Part shown: positions 4,746 through 50,368 of the stretch, one piece after another | Layout: every line of letters starts with the position of its first letter | Position numbering within the stretch: position 1 is the first letter of the stretch | Sequence record: PP971806.1 | Direction: 5' to 3' (one strand) | Length of the DNA: 50,368 nucleotides | DNA from: Escherichia phage GaoY1-9D | Translations under genes and position numbers: made by a program | Notes under the pieces: generated by a model | Told to the model about the DNA's origin: nothing | The model's input: only the letters and a program-made list of their open reading frames with translations | The model's database searches: none

Positions 4746-5282
4746 ATGAAAGATGAAAACTTCACCAGCACCGCTCAAGAGAAGGTGCGCATTGGAAACT
4801 TCAAAGAGCTGTACAACAAAAAGTATGGCGACATTGCCAACCTGAACCATCGTCATCCAATGACGCCTGAGACTGTATTCAACCTTGCGGTTAAATATTT
4901 CTCATGGGCCGAGGACCAGGCAATTAAGGCAATCGAAACGGCGAGCTCCCAGGGCGTTGTCACTGAGAACCTAGTGCACAAGCCGCGAGTGTTCACGCTT
5001 AACGGCTTCCAGCTTTATTGCGGCGTTACCTCCGGTGCTATCCAAAGCTGGCGCGCGTCGCCTGGATTCTCTGAGGTAATGGAGTTCATCGACTCAGTAA
5101 TTATTGAACAGAAATATCAGTTAGCTGCGTCCAACCTTATCAACGCCGGATTCGTAGGCAAAGACATTGGTATCGACAAGGCGGCAGAAGTGAACGTGCA
5201 GAACAACGTATCGGCTGGCGCGGTGTCAGTAACTACTGATGAATTTAAAGAAGCCGTCAAGGATATTTTGGGGGAATTATGA
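4746..5282 (+). CDS. terminase small subunit (putative)
   Basis: position immediately upstream of and overlapping the large terminase; size 178 aa. Confidence 0.5.
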   Translation: MKDENFTSTAQEKVRIGNFKELYNKKYGDIANLNHRHPMTPETVFNLAVKYFSWAEDQAIKAIETASSQGVVTENLVHKPRVFTLNGFQLYCGVTSGAIQSWRASPGFSEVMEFIDSVIIEQKYQLAASNLINAGFVGKDIGIDKAAEVNVQNNVSAGAVSVTTDEFKEAVKDILGEL

Positions 5283-6865
5283 TCCAGTGGGAAGATCTCG
5301 ACCTTGCAAGAAAGCAGGCAATAAAGGCGCTATCTGAGCAGTCATTCGAAAAGATGTTGAGAATCTGGTTCCAGATCGGGCAGGCTCAGAAGTTCCAAAG
5401 CAACTGGCACTTCACTTACCTTTGCTGGAAGGTTGAGCAGATCATCAAAGGCGAGGCGCAGAACGTGATATTCAACATCACGCCAGGCTCCGGTAAGACT
5501 GAGATCTTCTCTATCCACATGCCAGTTTACGGAATGTTAAAGAGTCCGAAGGTTCGAAATCTTAACCTTTCGTTCTCTGACAGTCTGGTGAAGGATAACG
5601 GGATCAGGACGCGTGAGATTATCGGTTGCGATGAGTTCCAGGAGCTATGGCCTACCAAACTGGCTAAGGCGTCCGGTGGCGATATTACCGCGCTGAATGA
5701 TAACGATAAAGCGTGGCTGACGTTAACATCGCGCGCTATCGGTGGCCAGGTAACTGGTAAGCGTGGCGGATACATGGAAGACCCTGACAAGCCATGGAGC
5801 TTTACCGGAATGTTGACGCTTGATGACCCCGACAAGCCAAAGGATATGTACTCACCCGTTAAGCGGAAAGCGGCGCATACCCTGCTAAAAAACACCGTGC
5901 GATCTCGTCGCATGACAGACAGGACGCCATGTGTCGTGGTTCAGCAGCGGCTACACGTTAACGACTCGACGTGGTTCCTGATGAATGGCGGCATGGGCGG
6001 CATGAAGTTTGAGCAGGTAATCATTCCGGCGCTGGTAACTGAGGAATACAGAGACACGCTTCCTGACTGGTTGAAAGAGGAATTTGACAGAGACGTTCTA
6101 TCTTCCCCATCGGTAATGATTGACGGGGTTGAACACTTCTCTTTCTGGCCCGCGAAGGAAAGCGCAGAAAGCCTACTGGCGTTGCGCGAAGCTGACCTTT
6201 ACACCTTCGAGTCGCAGTATCAGCAGAAGCCAATCGCGCTTGGAGGTAACGCGTTTAAATCGGACTGGTTCCAGTATTACGGAGATGGCGAGAAGGCCAA
6301 CATGCCAAAGCCGGATCGCTTCGAATACCTTTTTACTACTGCGGATACGGCGCAGAAAGCCGAGGAAATTCACGACTACAGCGTCTTTGTTTTGTGGGGT
6401 AAGTATAAGGACCGCGTATATTTCATCGACGGCATTCGCGGTAAGTGGGAAGCGCCGGAACTTGAAAAGATGGCCCTTAACTTTTATGGCAACTGCTTCA
6501 AATGGGCGAAGGATAACAAGACTTCACTGCGCAAGGTTTACATTGAAGACAAGGCGAGCGGTACCGGCCTGATCCAGTCAATCAACAAGAAACTACCGAT
6601 TGATATTACGCCAGTTCAGCGAAATACGGATAAGGTAACTCGCGCAATGGACGCGGCGCCAATCATGAAAGCGGGGCGCTGTGTTTTTCCTGAGTCTCAC
6701 GAAATGTTAAGTGACATGGAGGTTGAGTTGGTTTCATTCACGTTTGATGATTCATCTCCTCACGATGACATTTGCGATAACGTCTTTGATGCTGTAAACT
6801 TTGAGATGAACTTGCTTGATGATCCGGTAGCGCGAATGAAACGATTAGCGGGAATGCGCAAATAA
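5279..6865 (+). CDS. terminase large subunit
   Basis: 528 aa; P-loop-like TPGSGKT near N-terminus; C-terminal acidic nuclease-type region; followed by portal. Confidence 0.8.
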   Translation: MIQWEDLDLARKQAIKALSEQSFEKMLRIWFQIGQAQKFQSNWHFTYLCWKVEQIIKGEAQNVIFNITPGSGKTEIFSIHMPVYGMLKSPKVRNLNLSFSDSLVKDNGIRTREIIGCDEFQELWPTKLAKASGGDITALNDNDKAWLTLTSRAIGGQVTGKRGGYMEDPDKPWSFTGMLTLDDPDKPKDMYSPVKRKAAHTLLKNTVRSRRMTDRTPCVVVQQRLHVNDSTWFLMNGGMGGMKFEQVIIPALVTEEYRDTLPDWLKEEFDRDVLSSPSVMIDGVEHFSFWPAKESAESLLALREADLYTFESQYQQKPIALGGNAFKSDWFQYYGDGEKANMPKPDRFEYLFTTADTAQKAEEIHDYSVFVLWGKYKDRVYFIDGIRGKWEAPELEKMALNFYGNCFKWAKDNKTSLRKVYIEDKASGTGLIQSINKKLPIDITPVQRNTDKVTRAMDAAPIMKAGRCVFPESHEMLSDMEVELVSFTFDDSSPHDDICDNVFDAVNFEMNLLDDPVARMKRLAGMRK

Positions 6866-25421: not shown

Positions 25422-25505
25422 TTTGTTTTCCTTAGTAAGTATTTTTCGTTTCGATGAAGTAACTATACATGCAACTATCGTCGGAGTCTTTAACTATTCG
25501 TGCTA
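25422..25505 (-). promoter_or_regulatory. intergenic cassette copy (minus orientation)
   Basis: reverse complement reads TAGCACGAATAGTTAAA ... GTATAGTTA ... CATCGAAACGAAAAAT. Confidence 0.5.
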
Positions 25506-25938
25506 TTGTATACACGTAACCAATGTAACTCGATGTATACAATCCCATCCGCGAGAAATGATATACGCACTGTTACGCCAATTTACGCAATGGTTACATT
25601 AAAATATCTATATATATCAACCTTTTACTCTTATTATTATTATTATATATATTACTGTGTATATCATGTAACTACTTATATAGAGTGTTCCGCTTATAAA
25701 TTTCTAATATGTACATTTATACAGTATTTAATCACAAGCATACCAATGCACCATCCGCCAGAAGCGATATACACGATATACACGCTATTTACATCTAGCT
25801 ATAGCTGGGCATGATAGCCATTTTATGTAACTAGCGCCAATGTATACACATGATTACAGATACATACACGTAACCACTTGACTAATGCAACCAGTCGCGT
25901 ATAGTTAGCCACATCAACAACGAACGAGGATTAAAGAG
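25506..25938. repeat. AT-rich non-coding region with GTATACAC-type iterons and (TTA)n/(TA)n tract
   Basis: repeated TGTATACAC and GATATACAC; ACACGTAACCA twice; about 100 bp related to 46005..46100. Confidence 0.6.
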
Positions 25939-31472: not shown

Positions 31473-31946
31473 TCATTCTTTAGCTTTTCGTGCTGCTTCG
31501 TTTGCCGCTTTAATTTTTCGCCATGATCGACACTCTGGTTTAGTGGCTAGTTCAGCCTCAGTGACGACGCGCAGCATGTGACGCTTTTTGCAACGCAGCG
31601 TCAGCGGCTTACCGTTCCCATCGAATTGCAGATCAGGTCGGCAGAATGTAGCGCGGAATCCTTCGCCAGTTCGCTTATATCGGTTGTGCGCCAGTTGAGC
31701 GCCGCGAGCCGACATCATTCCTCGTTTAAACCATTCCTCAACGGCCTGGCGACTAACCTTCAGTTGTTTTGCGATATTGGCCTTCGTTCCGTAGAAGTCG
31801 AGAACCATTTCCAGTCGCGCCCGAAGCCCGGCCTTTACTTCATCTTTTAAAACGTAGTAACCTGAGGGTCGTTTCCGTTGCTTTTTGTCTTCAGTTCGGA
31901 CTGTTCCGTTGTTGCCGTTAATGGTTCGCTTGTCGACTGCATTCAT
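31473..31946 (-). CDS. HTH DNA-binding protein (putative transcriptional regulator)
   Basis: helix-turn-helix-like segment TKANIAKQLKVSRQAVEEWFKRG; basic protein. Confidence 0.5.
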   Translation of the reverse strand: MNAVDKRTINGNNGTVRTEDKKQRKRPSGYYVLKDEVKAGLRARLEMVLDFYGTKANIAKQLKVSRQAVEEWFKRGMMSARGAQLAHNRYKRTGEGFRATFCRPDLQFDGNGKPLTLRCKKRHMLRVVTEAELATKPECRSWRKIKAANEAARKAKE

Positions 31947-36662: not shown

Positions 36663-36894
36663 GGTAGGTCGTCAGGCTGTTTGGGATCACTGCAAGGAGG
36701 CAGGCATAAGTGATGATATTGCTCTTATAGCAAAGTATTTCGATATTAAAGATATATGCGTCATTTTCAACGGAAAGATGACGTATATACACGAAAGGCC
36801 GCGTAAGCTTATCAGAGTTCCGGCAACTCCGGTTAAGATTGACTACAAGGCCTGCATTCAAGCAACGAAAGACGCAGCGAGAAGATATAAATGA
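36649..36894 (+). CDS. hypothetical protein
   Basis: internal ATG 36649 of track ORF 36568..36894. Confidence 0.4.
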   Translation: MVTVEVGRQAVWDHCKEAGISDDIALIAKYFDIKDICVIFNGKMTYIHERPRKLIRVPATPVKIDYKACIQATKDAARRYK

Positions 36895-40341: not shown

Positions 40342-41925
40342 TTACCCCAGCAGTCGCGGATTAATGTAAATTTTATCACCAATCAGGCAAGTGTAGTTTT
40401 TCTCATCCAGCATAGGGATCAGGTGATCTTTGATGCGAGTCATTACACCACTTTGCCCTTCAAAGGGTTTAACCTTACGAGCCGCTTCATATAGGGATCG
40501 GACACCTACAACGCCCTTCCCGTTCTTACCTTGCTTGATCAGAATATCGATCAGCTTATTCATCTCCGCATGGTCGCCAGCATGACCAGCAGCGTTTGCA
40601 GATGACAGATAAGTCTTACTCAGTTCCTGGAACATAATTACCGCTTCCTGCATTGTGTCAAGCTCAATCTCTCTAGACTTCTGCGGACTCCCGCCATTGG
40701 GATTAAACCAGTTACGCACAGTGTGAAGAACAGCAGCGATCCTGATAGCCTGCTTATCGAACTTACCCAGCGCTCCGCGAAGCATTGTGTGTGAATACTT
40801 CCCGCCGTCCGCAAGGTGAGGCTCCATATCCTGACGAGCACGGTTGAGATATTTCATCGCCGACGTGCTCACTGTTAGGTTGACTTCGTGTTCGCTCATG
40901 ATCTCATGGACCAGACGGAAGTAGTCCGCCTTGAGTCCGCCATCAATCGGCTCATATGTTGATTCGCCTTTCTCATCTACGAACACACGCTCACCAAGGA
41001 ATGACTTCTCACGCACAAGCAAGAAACGTTCTGACACACCGATACCACGCGCACCAGCATTCATGATCGCGTTGATTGTTTCATCCTGTGCAATTACAGA
41101 TATGCAGCCCATCGCAATGAAGCTCATGTTATTGTCTGCGTTCGCACGGGCGATAGACACGTTACCAGCATCCCATGCTTTCAGCACAAGCTCGCTGTTC
41201 GTTTTCTTTGAGCCGTCACCATAGGTCATGCCTAACAGTGAGTTCACGCTCGTTGCTTCATCCGAGATCACTGCAAAGTTGCCCTGGCGGTTGTTGATTC
41301 GCGCAAGACCTTCCGGCGTGGTGTCGGATACGGGGAAAACGATGTCACAGAGTCGTTCAAGTTTTTCTTCAAGTTCCTCTTTCTCATCAAACAGAGCCGC
41401 CATATCAGATGGTGATTTCTCCTGCTTCATCTCCTTGGATAGAGCGGAGAGCTTAGCCATAATCTTCTTGCGGTCACGCTTTCGGATCTCGTTGAGTCGC
41501 TCAGTCTCTGCGATCATTGGGGCCAGGGAAAGTGAGTTAATGGCTGATTTACCCGTCGATGGCGGCTGACTGGTTACGACGTACAGCGCGGTCGGCTGTT
41601 GTGTTCCGTGATACTCAACCGTAAATCGGCCCAGCATGGCGGCTGATATGCATCCGAGGAAATGCATGTAAGCGGACGACTCGGGGAACTGAACTGAACG
41701 AGCGGCATTGCTTGACAGCTTACCAACGACATCACAATCGTTACCAAGTGAGATAACCGGATATTTGTCACCGCCTGAGTCAATTTCTGTTGGGGCTTTC
41801 CAGAATGATTGGCTCTGCCTGTATCCGTTCGCATTGATGGCAACGCGCAAAGGTGGCAGGTTATCGGCAGCGGCTACAGCCATGACCTGATCGATTGACA
41901 ATTTATCTTCGTTGAAATCAAACAT
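40342..41925 (-). CDS. P-loop NTPase of unknown role (possible replication initiator or helicase-type ATPase)
   Basis: Walker A QPPSTGKSA; Walker B-like AVISDE; N- and C-terminal modules shared with 46901..47464. Confidence 0.55.
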   Translation of the reverse strand: MFDFNEDKLSIDQVMAVAAADNLPPLRVAINANGYRQSQSFWKAPTEIDSGGDKYPVISLGNDCDVVGKLSSNAARSVQFPESSAYMHFLGCISAAMLGRFTVEYHGTQQPTALYVVTSQPPSTGKSAINSLSLAPMIAETERLNEIRKRDRKKIMAKLSALSKEMKQEKSPSDMAALFDEKEELEEKLERLCDIVFPVSDTTPEGLARINNRQGNFAVISDEATSVNSLLGMTYGDGSKKTNSELVLKAWDAGNVSIARANADNNMSFIAMGCISVIAQDETINAIMNAGARGIGVSERFLLVREKSFLGERVFVDEKGESTYEPIDGGLKADYFRLVHEIMSEHEVNLTVSTSAMKYLNRARQDMEPHLADGGKYSHTMLRGALGKFDKQAIRIAAVLHTVRNWFNPNGGSPQKSREIELDTMQEAVIMFQELSKTYLSSANAAGHAGDHAEMNKLIDILIKQGKNGKGVVGVRSLYEAARKVKPFEGQSGVMTRIKDHLIPMLDEKNYTCLIGDKIYINPRLLG

Positions 41926-42607: not shown

Positions 42608-42855
42608 TTTGCTAGTTTGACATATCAATCCAAGAAAATACAAACTAACTCTATTCTAAATCAAACGGTATTGACCTATTGTAAAAGTACATATAACAAT
42701 CATAGTTATGTTTTGGTTGCACCGTCTCAGATAGACACGCCTTTACAGAATCGCGGTCAGATGGATCTACATGCTCAGCCTTAAGTAATGCTAAGATCTG
42801 GTTATAGCGCACCATTAGTTGTACAATTTGCTCCTGCCTCATATTATCTACCCCC

Positions 42856-44859: not shown

Positions 44860-45666
44860 TTATATGTCGCTGAAAACTTCACAGCTTTCACTGCAAGATC
44901 CGGTGTCGAATGATTTGGCCCCTCTAACCCTTGAGGCTATCTCATCTCTCGACTGTGGAAACATCTGTATAATGTCACCGATTGAGCGCCTTCCTCTGTA
45001 CATGTCAGATGATGATTCCTTTTTATTGTGCTCACTAATTGTGTCAATGAATAGCTTTGCAAGTTCCGGCTCATCTTTACACGCAAGCGCAATCTTAAGC
45101 TCTGACTTCTTGATGCAGAAAACGCAGTTACCAAGATGCTCATCAATTTCAAGGTCAAATGGCATGTCATGCCAGAAGTCGATAATGTCCTGTTTTTCGA
45201 AATCAGATATGTCAGCAAGGTAACTGAACCCATCGACGGGTTTTAGTCTCTTTGGCTCATCGGCACGAATACCAATCCATCTCTGATAATTACCCTTACC
45301 ATACTTCTCCTCGCAGTACTTCTCGAATGGCTTAGTCTTCATCCTGTTCGTACAGAATGGCCCGCCTTGGTATGGATTTCCGTACTTCCTTAGCATTCTA
45401 ATCCACCCAGTCAGATCATGGTGAATGTCATCGACGCTGACAACTTCGAAAGATGGAGCCCCGCGGAACTTATCGCTGGGCAAACATCTCAGGCAGGTTA
45501 TCGGCCTTGAAAGCATTGATGAGACTTTACGGATAAACTCATATGTCTTCGGATGCTCTGCTCCAGTGTCCATATAAATCACCTCCGCGTCAGGATGAAT
45601 CTTGAGTACCTCAAGTGTCATGTATGCCGAAGTCCTGCCGCCGCTAAAACTAATTACCTGATTCAT
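44860..45666 (-). CDS. PAPS reductase-family PP-loop ATPase
   Basis: PP-loop SFSGGRTSAYM at N-terminus; ATG 45666 with RBS AGGAG. Confidence 0.7.
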   Translation of the reverse strand: MNQVISFSGGRTSAYMTLEVLKIHPDAEVIYMDTGAEHPKTYEFIRKVSSMLSRPITCLRCLPSDKFRGAPSFEVVSVDDIHHDLTGWIRMLRKYGNPYQGGPFCTNRMKTKPFEKYCEEKYGKGNYQRWIGIRADEPKRLKPVDGFSYLADISDFEKQDIIDFWHDMPFDLEIDEHLGNCVFCIKKSELKIALACKDEPELAKLFIDTISEHNKKESSSDMYRGRRSIGDIIQMFPQSRDEIASRVRGAKSFDTGSCSESCEVFSDI

Positions 45667-45744
45667 TTCAACTCCTATTTGTGCGCTAAATAACAACCAG
45701 ATGATAGCAACTAACCCATGAATGGTCATTAGCAAAAAGTGCTA
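45667..45744 (-). promoter_or_regulatory. cassette-like element upstream of PAPS reductase gene
   Basis: minus strand TAGCACTTTTTGCTAAT at 45728-45744. Confidence 0.45.
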
Positions 45745-46373
45745 TTCGTTCGATTTATGGATTGTTGCAGCTATTGCAATGATTCACATGACTATTGCAC
45801 AGATAGCAATATTGCATCTATTGCAATGATGTTTTCTATTGTTGCGAATTGAGCAATGATTCATTGATGGGGGGAATGATGGGGTGATCAAGGATCACCT
45901 GATCGACTGGTAGGATTTTCCCGCCACACGCTTCTAGCGTATACGCGTTATTTATGTTATGCCATGTAGACACACCAGCACTCCGTAGGAATCATGTACG
46001 CATATCACGCTTAATTACGCCATGGTTACATTAAAATATCCTTATATAATAACCATTTATCTATATTATTATTATTAATATATATATATGTAGATAATGT
46101 AGATAGTGGATATGTGATATTGCGATAGTTTTCTATGATATTTTCCTACACCTGTAGGAATATGACGACATTGTAGGAATAAAAGGGCATGTAGGGGCCC
46201 ATTTGCTAAAAATCCTTATCTACAAACTATACGCAGACTTTACATTGAGCTATATCTGGGGCGATTGGTGGAAATATGTAACTAATCAGAAAATTTGCAC
46301 CGATAACACTTGATAACACGTAGATGTGTGATACTATGGAATCATCTTAGCGAAGACCAACCAATCAGGAGTA
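45745..46373. repeat. AT-rich non-coding region with TATTGCAATGAT repeats, GATC-rich palindrome, GTATAC and GTAGGAAT motifs and (TTA)n/(TA)n tract
   Basis: TATTGCAATGAT at about 45772 and 45819; GGTGATCAAGGATCACCTGATC; TGTAGGAAT three times; core related to 25560..25665. Confidence 0.6.
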
Positions 46374-46901
46374 ATGAGTATGTCAGAGCACAAAGAAGCA
46401 GTAAGCCTCGGTGACGTTATCCGCTACATGGCGGAGCAAGCGCTCAAGTCCGAGAACCGCAGCTACCACGTCCCAATCCATCTAATAGCTCGCCAGGTTT
46501 ACGGCCTCACATCTAGTGATATAGGAGGCATAAGTCGTGAGGATCTGGATGTAGGTGGCAAGTACAGTATGGCAAAGCTGAAGGCGTCATATGTCGCCAA
46601 TACGGTAGCCAGGATGCCAGAGATACAGGCGGCAAACGTTCGTGCAAAACTTTCAATTAAGGATGGTGATTTCGGTGATGACGTCGAGGTTCGGTGTGCT
46701 TATCTGTCTTTGGTTGATGGCGCAATCCAGACAGGAAAGCGAGTGAAGGCAAACTGCCAGATTGCAGAGAAGGCTGTGAGCGACTTTAAGGTCAAAATAC
46801 TCAAGCTGATGCCATCCGTGACTAACTTTGAGGGCGATGAGATTACAGGAGCCATCAAGGCAATCAAAATGTACCAGGAAATGATTAGGGAGACGAAATA
46901 A
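46374..46901 (+). CDS. hypothetical protein
   Basis: ATG 46374 with RBS AGGAG; first gene after AT-rich region. Confidence 0.5.
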   Translation: MSMSEHKEAVSLGDVIRYMAEQALKSENRSYHVPIHLIARQVYGLTSSDIGGISREDLDVGGKYSMAKLKASYVANTVARMPEIQAANVRAKLSIKDGDFGDDVEVRCAYLSLVDGAIQTGKRVKANCQIAEKAVSDFKVKILKLMPSVTNFEGDEITGAIKAIKMYQEMIRETK

Positions 46902-47464
46902 TGTGGATGTTTGATTTTAACGAAGAGAAGCTGACAGATGAGCAGATTATGAAGATTGCTACGGAAGATGGGATTCCACCACTACGAGTTGCAATCAATG
47001 CTAACGGATACCGACAGTCACAAAAGTACTGGTGCGAATTAGAAGTTATGCGTCGCGCAAACCTAAATCGTGAACAATGCGTCGTGGTTGAAAAGATCTG
47101 GAAGCAAGCGATAAATGGAAAAGGCGTTGTGGGAGTTCGCTCAACATATGAGGCGATCAGAAAGGTCCAGCCGTTCGTCGAGCGTAATGGAGTAATGAAT
47201 AACCTGATTGACAATATCCTACCATCACTACAGGACGCGGGAATCATTTGCCTTATTGGTGACAAGATATATGCACACCCATACCTGGTGGGCATGTATG
47301 GGAGAGACATCCACAAGTGGTGCGACTCATGGAGATCGGTTGAGCGCAAATCTCATAGCAAATTGCAGGCAAGCTCAGACATGATTCATGGCTATGATGC
47401 CGATGATGTCAGAAAGGCTGTCGAGTTTTATCGGAAAGCTAAATCACTCCTGAACGGTGAATAG
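46901..47464 (+). CDS. hypothetical protein, truncated paralog of the 40342..41925 P-loop protein
   Basis: shares MFDFNE-KL ... PPLRVAINANGYRQSQ and GKGVVGVRS-YEA-RKV-PF ... CLIGDKIY with the 527-aa protein. Confidence 0.55.
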   Translation: MWMFDFNEEKLTDEQIMKIATEDGIPPLRVAINANGYRQSQKYWCELEVMRRANLNREQCVVVEKIWKQAINGKGVVGVRSTYEAIRKVQPFVERNGVMNNLIDNILPSLQDAGIICLIGDKIYAHPYLVGMYGRDIHKWCDSWRSVERKSHSKLQASSDMIHGYDADDVRKAVEFYRKAKSLLNGE

Positions 47465-50148: not shown

Positions 50149-50368
50149 ATGAACAGCATCAACCGATATATCCCTGTGTCAGCGCCAACCAGCGTCAACA
50201 TTCACGGCGTCGGAATGCAATCCTGCGACGATGGAGCATGGGTATCCTACGCAATGCATAAAAAAGAAATTGAGTCGTTACAGGCGCGTTTAAATGCCTT
50301 AGAATCGAATCAAAAACATCAAATTTCTGTGCCGTCAATTATCGCCGATCATGTTGAGCAAGCAATCC
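50149..50368 (+). CDS. hypothetical protein, 3' end cut by window (same gene as 13..714)
   Basis: ATG 50149 with RBS; in frame with 13..714 across the terminal duplication. Confidence 0.5.
   Translation, partial: MNSINRYIPVSAPTSVNIHGVGMQSCDDGAWVSYAMHKKEIESLQARLNALESNQKHQISVPSIIADHVEQAI

Follow-up and report, generated by a model that had tools for sequence, protein, structure and literature searches.

What does a T1-like phage keep in the largest gap between its genes? The question is raised by Escherichia phage GaoY1-9D (PP971806.1), whose whole stretch of 50,368 nucleotides, analysed here, is called the window. It is a circularly assembled T1-like phage (Drexlerviridae, Nouzillyvirus-like). 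Its ends (1-127 and 50242-50368) form an exact 127-bp direct repeat, the assembly overlap of a circular or permuted genome, and because of this overlap the window is taken to be a circularly closed assembly with 50,241 unique bases. BLAST of 45400-46700 matched Drexlerviridae (T1-like phages) only; the best match, over the whole query at 93% identity, was vB_EcoM-p111 (Nouzillyvirus), whose record likewise has 50,241 bp. Gene order is as in T1. From ~46.4 kb, across the window end and up to ~4.7 kb, there are small plus-strand early genes, followed by terS/terL (4746..6865), structural genes, recE/erf, replication and lysis genes and a minus-strand block, which stops at the 45667-46379 gap.

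A sequence-only reading had described 45745-46373 as the largest non-coding stretch of the genome, separating the minus-strand block from the plus-strand early genes. Both points are borne out: 638 bp contain no ORF of at least 60 aa, the longest ORF-free stretch in the window, and the gap between genes proper (45667..46379, ~713 bp) is the largest in the genome and does divide the two gene blocks. An Rfam scan of 45500-46500 gave no match at E <=1, and a tRNA scan of the window found none. On the left lies a minus-strand gene (44860-45666) for a PAPS-reductase-domain protein, annotated NinC in p111; its start is placed at 45666, not at TTG 45735, with a good RBS and in agreement with the p111 annotation. 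On the right, the conserved start is ATG 46380, 8 nt past AGGAG, preferred because the first ATG, at 46374, is missing in p111. The gene that begins there (46374/46380..46901) encodes a DUF7174 protein. The gap is thus not directly upstream of the truncated paralog of a P-loop protein, as had been proposed, since that gene (46901..47464) comes second. The paralogy itself holds: the product of 46901..47464 has retained two parts of the DUF3987 'P-loop' protein of 40342..41925 (here called the DUF3987 helicase), 42 aa at the N-terminus with 69% identity and 92 aa at the C-terminus with 45% identity.

Judged by its homology to the left end of T1, the gap is the T1-family 'left-end' region, a known kind of packaging-start and early-control region. 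Homologous sequence is found at the left ends of T1 (NC_005833 positions 1-538), Rtp, MSK, SU57 and UDF157lw, and T1-like left ends share a context of minus-strand block, large gap, small plus-strand early genes and terS ~9 kb downstream, with a terminal repeat or PhageTerm termini inside the gap. The region is unsurprising in kind, because phages are expected to carry such sites. T1 differs in having two of the four dyads described below and other box sequences (TTACGCC, GATTAACAC), and the present phage is set apart by the NinC-like gene to the left of its gap. Of the relatives examined, p111 alone has such a gene at this place; in the others unrelated, non-homologous small genes stand there, so that the conserved non-coding block marks a mosaic boundary. 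We consider it fairly probable that the gap itself is a mosaic of leftward promoter, pac site, duplicated AT-rich module and sigma-70 early promoter (Table 1). A packaging-start (pac) function was absent from the sequence-only reading, and we found no description of either the four-dyad array or the two-copy module in the accessible literature.

Table 1. Features of the gap between the minus-strand block and the early genes (window coordinates)
Feature	Coordinates	Strand	Remarks
Leftward promoter of NinC-like gene	45701..45745	-	DR element ATAGCACTTTTTGCTAA (45729-45745) and extended -10 TGcTATCAT
Four 15-bp dyads, TTGC-N7-GCAA	45765-45779, 45795-45809, 45812-45826, 45842-45856 (array 45761..45858)	.	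Proposed pac recognition part
TGAT/G-run box TGATTCATTGATGGGGGGAATGATGGGGTGATC, then putative pac cleavage zone	45857..45935	+	Termini of relatives map here
Module core: boxes, AT tract, tandem 9-mers	45936..46135	.	Paralog of 25503-25706
Palindrome TTCCTACA-CC-TGTAGGAA and direct repeats	46143-46160 within 46140..46198	.	Repeat and palindrome searches
Second collinear block: TTATCTACA, TTTACATTGAGCTATATCTGGGG, TATGTAACTA, GATAACAC (twice)	46216..46319	+	Common to 25767-25872
Immediate-early sigma-70 promoter	46310..46337	+	TTGATA, 16-nt spacer, TGaTACTAT; promoter scan

The divergent control elements suspected earlier are present as a conserved outward-facing promoter at either end of the gap, each with recognisable hexamers, a spacer in the 16-18 nt range, conservation in relatives and a gene behind it. 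The promoter scan found the leftward one as ATGACC-17-TGcTATCAT (45729 to 45701, with the -10 hexamer at 45701-45706). Its upstream part is a copy of the DR element (ATAGCACnnnTTGnTAA) with 0 mismatches to the 17-nt consensus; it is intergenic, points along transcription and lies about 60-80 nt before the start codon at 45666, and positions 45730-45749 are 97% identical across 10 distant phages. DR elements number 22 in the window against 1.3 expected, and 19 have at most one mismatch. A TAnnnT-type -10-like box, commonly with TG before it, follows TTGnTA by ~21-23 nt in 17 of these 19 copies, and a CATCGAAACGAA-type leader is recognisable before the RBS in about half of the copies. TTGnTA falls at about -40..-35 and is therefore not a normal -35, so the promoters look activator-dependent. 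The leftward promoter, of the ATAGCAC-N3-TTGnTAA type, would drive the NinC-like gene. The DR element is the 21-nt intergenic repeat of TLS and T1 (aaATAGCACnnnTTGnTAAAA), given as an open question for TLS in the accessible part of the TLS paper; that part makes no mention for TLS of the -10-like box and CATCGAAACGAA-type leader that accompany the repeat here (PMC11447400).

At the other end, what looks like a canonical sigma-70 immediate-early promoter would serve the plus-strand early genes. Behind it come the family leader CATCttaGCGAAGaCCAACCAA, which is similar to the leaders of DR-type promoters, and the RBS AGGAG (46367-46371) of the DUF7174 gene; its -35 and -10 are conserved in Rtp, T1 (TTGACA), MSK and others. 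Supplementary Table S1 for TLS gives three sigma-70 promoters only, among them P01 (523..549), which immediately precedes gp01, and P51, located where recE begins (PMC11447400). By position, unaligned, P01 corresponds to window 46310-46337 and P51 to 25878-25905.

Next to the leftward promoter lies the most distinctive part of the gap. The TATTGCAATGAT repeats reported by the sequence-only reading are exact at 45772-45783 and 45819-45830, and ATTGCAAT has just two copies in 50 kb, both inside this gap. A repeat-family search made the TATTGCAATGAT repeats members of an array of four dyads with the core TTGC-N7-GCAA and a start-to-start spacing of 30-17-30. The array is symmetric about 45810.5, near the centre (45809.5) of the palindrome GCAATATTGC, and occurs once in the window. 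Genome-wide, TTGC-N7-GCAA has 7 matches (1.8 expected), four of them within 92 bp in the gap; ATTGCA is enriched 50-fold in 45751-45935 (6 against 0.12 expected), and TGTAG/CTACA is seen 8 times where 0.52 are expected. Chance does not account for such numbers.

We aligned 15 phages from Nouzillyvirus, Braunvirinae, Rogunavirinae and Tunavirus. The dyad array is 80-97% conserved in 10 distant Drexlerviridae, across subfamilies, and window bases 45730-45859 and 45870-45879 are 74-97% identical in ten distant phages. The half-sites of the dyads are invariant whereas the 7-nt spacers vary (~14 related phages). The strict four-dyad pattern was found in only five viral contigs, all of lengths that fit known T1-like phages. 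T1 retains two dyads with the 30-bp spacing unchanged (T1 positions 2 and 32), and TLS has a different dyad pair, GACCGATTGGTC twice, in the equivalent place. A short ORF over this DNA (45739..45852) was rejected as coding: it lacks an RBS, is not intact in all relatives and recurs through DNA conservation. Its variation by codon position is 32/32/58, with the third-position excess coming from a few spacer columns. None of the short ORFs in the gap that are annotated in some relatives is intact in all relatives.

Just to the right of the dyads is where the packaging termini of relatives align. For MSK, PhageTerm indicated forward headful packaging from position 36,862 (PMC8421802), which aligns to window 45895. 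For UDF157lw, whose record was re-opened at the terminus given by PhageTerm (PMC10838988), the start aligns to 45891; that of the SU57 record, set from PhageTerm output and a coverage step (PMC7718038), aligns to ~45916. The three termini fall within 25 bp of one another, 35-65 bp right of the dyads; the relatives that supply them are 71-76% identical to this phage in the gap region. The T1 record (NC_005833) has a 2800-bp terminal repeat_region annotated from position 1 and its first gene at 539. In the alignment to the window, T1 position 1 falls at 45811 and Rtp position 1 at 45805. The cut position is uncertain (about 45811-45920), because the T1 record start aligns ~80 bp left of the PhageTerm termini. 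The TLS record opens inside the corresponding intergenic region, 588 bp before gp01. For two other T1-like phages, KanT1 and OzMSK, PhageTerm runs gave no clear terminus.

We therefore regard 45751-45935 as the probable pac site, the sequence recognised by terminase; the dyads are better explained in this way because they are far from the promoters, absent at 25.5 kb and close to the termini of relatives. The pac sequence of SU57 was 'not identified' (PMC7718038), and in the accessible papers both pac sequence and replication origin of T1-like phages are described as unidentified, the origin in the SU57 and TLS papers (PMC7718038, PMC11447400). TLS pac was located by restriction mapping of a sub-molar fragment and then fixed by likeness to the P22 pac consensus (PMC11447400). 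A proposal of 'five ATATA repeats' as pac is mentioned second-hand in the accessible text of the MSK paper (PMC8421802). An AT-rich motif of the ATATA type is unlikely as a unique pac signal, because it is duplicated at recE.

The dyads might instead be bound as operators by a phage transcription factor such as the Cro-like HTH protein of 31473..31946, acting on either or both promoters. Dimeric HTH regulators typically have 15-bp dyads of this kind, in which the half-sites are conserved, a Cro-like HTH protein is encoded (though its P22_Cro match is below the Pfam cut-off), and the array begins 16 bp upstream of the leftward promoter element. We nevertheless hold this to be very improbable. 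The dyads overlap neither core promoter: they occupy roughly -70 to -165 with respect to the leftward start and are 490-580 bp away from the rightward promoter. They are missing, with the whole 45751-45935 block, from the paralogous divergent region at 25.5 kb, which has the same promoter layout and in which the module starts right after the leftward promoter element, and ~20 other DR-type promoters are likewise without them.

If 45751-45935 is the pac site, the P22 gp3-type TerS (4746..5282) would assemble on the four dyads, and perhaps on the neighbouring TGAT/G-run box as well. The large terminase would then make its first cut ~35-65 bp to the right, around 45890-45920, and headful packaging would proceed rightward through the early genes. 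Both subunits are encoded at 4746..6865, TerS being P22 gp3-like by its PF16677 domain. Two points count against this reading. The first headful would leave unpackaged the side of the cut on which the dyads sit, and TerS divergence does not track dyad divergence: the TerS proteins of ES, IME542 and 12469II are just 54-65% identical, yet their dyads are nearly identical, and T1, with a TerS 55% identical, has two dyads only.

Known systems resemble this arrangement in part. In SPP1 pac (pacL-pacC-pacR) and lambda cosB, repeated small-terminase binding sites adjoin the cleavage site. The likeness lies in several short repeats within ~100 bp, adjoining the first cut, and in unidirectional packaging; unlike the SPP1 boxes and lambda R sites, the candidate sites here are 15-bp dyads with a symmetric 30-17-30 spacing on the non-packaged side of the inferred cut. 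The known pac site of the P22 gp3 family is inside gene 3, whereas that proposed for the T1 family is intergenic, ~9 kb from the TerS gene. P1 pac consists of clusters of TGATCA/G hexamers, and its cleavage is controlled by Dam methylation. The putative cut zone here recalls it in six TGAT(C) occurrences between 45857 and 45904 and three GATC sites within 20 bp, and T1-like phages encode a Dam methylase, according to the T1 annotation. P1-type pac has two TGATCA/G clusters flanking the cut; here a single cluster was found, in this phage and its close relatives only and not family-wide. The three GATC (Dam) sites, at 45886, 45893 and 45901, lie where the packaging termini of relatives map. They are kept in close Nouzillyvirus-like relatives only and cannot be a family-wide signal, because Braunvirinae, Rogunavirus and T1 have none or a single site. 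Genome-wide the GATC count equals expectation (217 against 217), and just the local cluster of three stands out.

To the right of the probable pac site begins a module that the genome carries twice. A core of roughly 100 bp had been reported as shared with 25560..25665. That similarity is real, but it is longer than was stated, ~200 bp plus a second block. In a self-BLAST search 45934-46135 matched 25503-25706 (72% over 209 bp, E=1.5e-25) and, collinearly, 46218-46322 matched 25767-25872 (E=0.009). The core holds, in order, ATACGCGT/TACGC-type boxes (45942, 45997, 46006 and 46016), GGTTACATTAAAATATC, a (TTA)n(TA)n run at 46064-46089, which confirms the AT tract TATTATTATTATTAATATATATATAT of the sequence-only reading, and the tandem 9-mers ATGTAGATA, two copies at 46088-46105. 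It is quasi-palindromic about 46072. The lowest-GC 60-mer of the genome (46030-46089, 8%) falls here, the paralog being second at 12% and the next lowest 22%. The 8-bp palindrome CGTATACG to which attention had been drawn is present at 45938-45945, although a single palindrome of this length is not significant, with ~2.5 expected in 629 bp.

Further right, the three copies of GTAGGAAT noted earlier are exact (45985, 46154 and 46173) and have no counterpart elsewhere in the window. An inverted copy, TTCCTACA, lies at 46143-46150, and direct repeats follow at 46153 and 46172 (TGTAGGAAT) and at 46190 (TGTAGGGGC), with 19/18-bp spacing. The TTCCTACA/TGTAGGAA palindrome is retained in Sd1 and 12469II through two compensatory double changes (TTCTGACA..TGTCAGAA). 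In the second collinear block the GATAACAC copies are at 46302 and 46312, the second overlapping the -35 of the early promoter, and the AGCTATAGCT palindrome is perfect in the 25.5-kb copy, Rtp and ES.

Both copies share one order. First comes an ATAC(G/A)CGT box, then three TACGC-type boxes 9-10 bp apart; GGTTACATTAAAATATC and the (TTA)n(TA)n tract are next, followed by TGTAnAnn 9-mers in tandem, TTTACAT..AGCTATA.CTGGG, TATGTAACTA and finally boxes at the -35 of the sigma-70 promoter, which is ~260 bp from the AT core. The module core is 65-89% conserved in distant phages, and within each phage the tandem 9-mers vary together (GATA, TATC or TACC variants). The same duplication between early region and recE region is found in T1 (E=3e-9) and TLS (E=2e-10), with genus-specific box sequences. 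Because the boxes show concerted evolution, it can be argued that one phage-specific protein reads both loci. Such a protein would bind the short iterated boxes around the AT-rich quasi-palindrome of each ~360-bp module, which may serve as one of a pair of replication origins or as a shared early-control element; the duplicated module (45936-46300) may accordingly be listed as a candidate for either.

The second copy stands in another large divergent intergenic region (25422-25938), between a minus-strand gene at the position of T1 cor and recE. In this paralog of 45934-46322 there is no dyad/pac block. Its elements are a leftward promoter element of DR type (25490-25506), a perfect IHF core consensus (25615-25627), ten TATACA boxes (0.13 expected) and a canonical promoter, TTGACT-16-TATAGT (25878-25905).

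An origin had been suggested for the gap as a whole. On this account the gap unites a replication origin with divergent control: the repeats TATTGCAATGAT and GTAGGAAT would act as iterons or operators, the AT tract would unwind, and the DUF3987 helicase (40342..41925) and its truncated paralog (46901..47464) would be the candidate binders. Iteron-like boxes do flank the most AT-rich DNA of the genome, and in any one phage the tandem 9-mers evolve in concert. According to two papers the origin of T1-like phages has not been found (PMC11447400; PMC7718038), and SPP1 offers a precedent of two origins bound by one protein (PMC3485210). Three observations speak against the account. The TATTGCAAT dyads do not belong to the duplicated module, and packaging termini of relatives coincide with them; an exact IHF core consensus WATCAANNNNTTR is absent from 45667-46379; and the DnaA-like boxes TTATCTACA are only 8/9 matches and are not conserved in relatives. 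We consider an origin comprising the whole gap possible but unlikely.

The idea of an origin is possible solely for the AT-rich/iteron module (45936-46300), present in two copies per genome. An iteron-origin layout is recognisable there in the TACGC-type boxes at 45997, 46006 and 46016, two copies each of ATGTAGATA and TGTAGGAAT and the 8% GC segment. Short repeated boxes on either side of an extremely AT-rich segment are also a feature of lambda ori and SPP1 oriL/oriR. SPP1 is also similar in having two related copies per genome, both bound by G38P according to the accessible portion of the source (PMC3485210). In contrast to the lambda and SPP1 origins, the module is outside any initiator gene and its box types are heterogeneous (TACGC, TGTAGA, TGTAGGAAT). 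The early protein of 46901..47464 and the C-terminus of the DUF3987 helicase have a winged-helix domain in common. That T1-like phages replicate from the two paralogous modules (45936-46300 and 25503-25872), as an oriL/oriR-type pair read by this domain of helicase and paralog with the boxes co-evolving per genus, we think decidedly doubtful. A search of the gap for clustered or conserved DnaA boxes (TTATCCACA) gave two 8/9 matches, 46089-46097 (-) and 46216-46224 (+), neither clustered nor conserved; the boxes matching these sites read TGTATATC and TGTATACC in Rtp and Sd1. The only match of the module to the IHF core consensus is in the paralog (25615-25627), and several relatives read TATCAACCTTTTA at the position aligned to it. 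GC skew follows gene orientation only and is uninformative on the origin, and the accessible literature held nothing usable on origin or transcript mapping for T1.

The module could also be purely transcriptional, providing extra divergent early promoters in the AT core (hexamers TCTACA-18-AATAAT leftward and TTTATC-17/18-TATATA rightward) or an upstream enhancer or architectural element, and so serving two of the three canonical sigma-70 early promoters. Its two copies are collinear and each ~260 bp upstream of a canonical sigma-70 promoter, the promoter-like hexamers recur at equivalent places in both, and two of the three TLS sigma-70 promoters (P01 and P51) are at these two loci according to the accessible part of the TLS paper (PMC11447400). 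However, the hexamers are weak (9/12), at chance level for AT-rich DNA (4 against 4.1 expected in the region A scan), 260 bp is too distant for an UP element, and the region of the third sigma-70 promoter, ~31.95-32.04 kb, has no such module. A purely transcriptional role remains a tentative alternative to which we give rather low probability.

T1-like phages often contaminate laboratories and fermentations; they are also generalized transducers and have been considered for therapy. A pac signal defined as proposed here, with four TTGC-N7-GCAA dyads and a cut ~35-65 bp to their right, would account for the starting points of packaging series, which bears on how genomes are opened and compared. 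It would also permit pac-plasmid transduction tools and help to predict transduction risk. The duplicated module, for its part, offers two precise candidates for an origin or a shared early-control element.

A terminator scan found one weak site, inside the first gene and not above chance. Examples of DR copies elsewhere are those at 711, 2695, 26976, 35041, 47461, 48352, 49017 and 50064 on the plus strand and at 42608, 43157, 44453, 44858 and 45745 on the minus strand. In many copies a hairpin has the -10 box in its loop or 3' arm, with stems that vary among copies (e.g. GGAGACA/TGTCTCC, AAGGCCA/TGGCCTT and GAGTGCAC/GTGCACTC), the folding z-score averaging -2.3 and reaching -5.3; other copies have a terminator-like hairpin between element and -10. 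The minus-strand gene 31473-31946 (157 aa) has a weak P22 Cro-like HTH match (P22_Cro, E=1e-4, 22.4 bits against a Pfam cut-off of 30.2). Its homologs in T1 and TLS are annotated 'transcriptional regulator', and in TLS the third canonical sigma-70 promoter (P57) stands in front of the homolog. This Cro-like protein is a candidate activator of the DR-type promoters.
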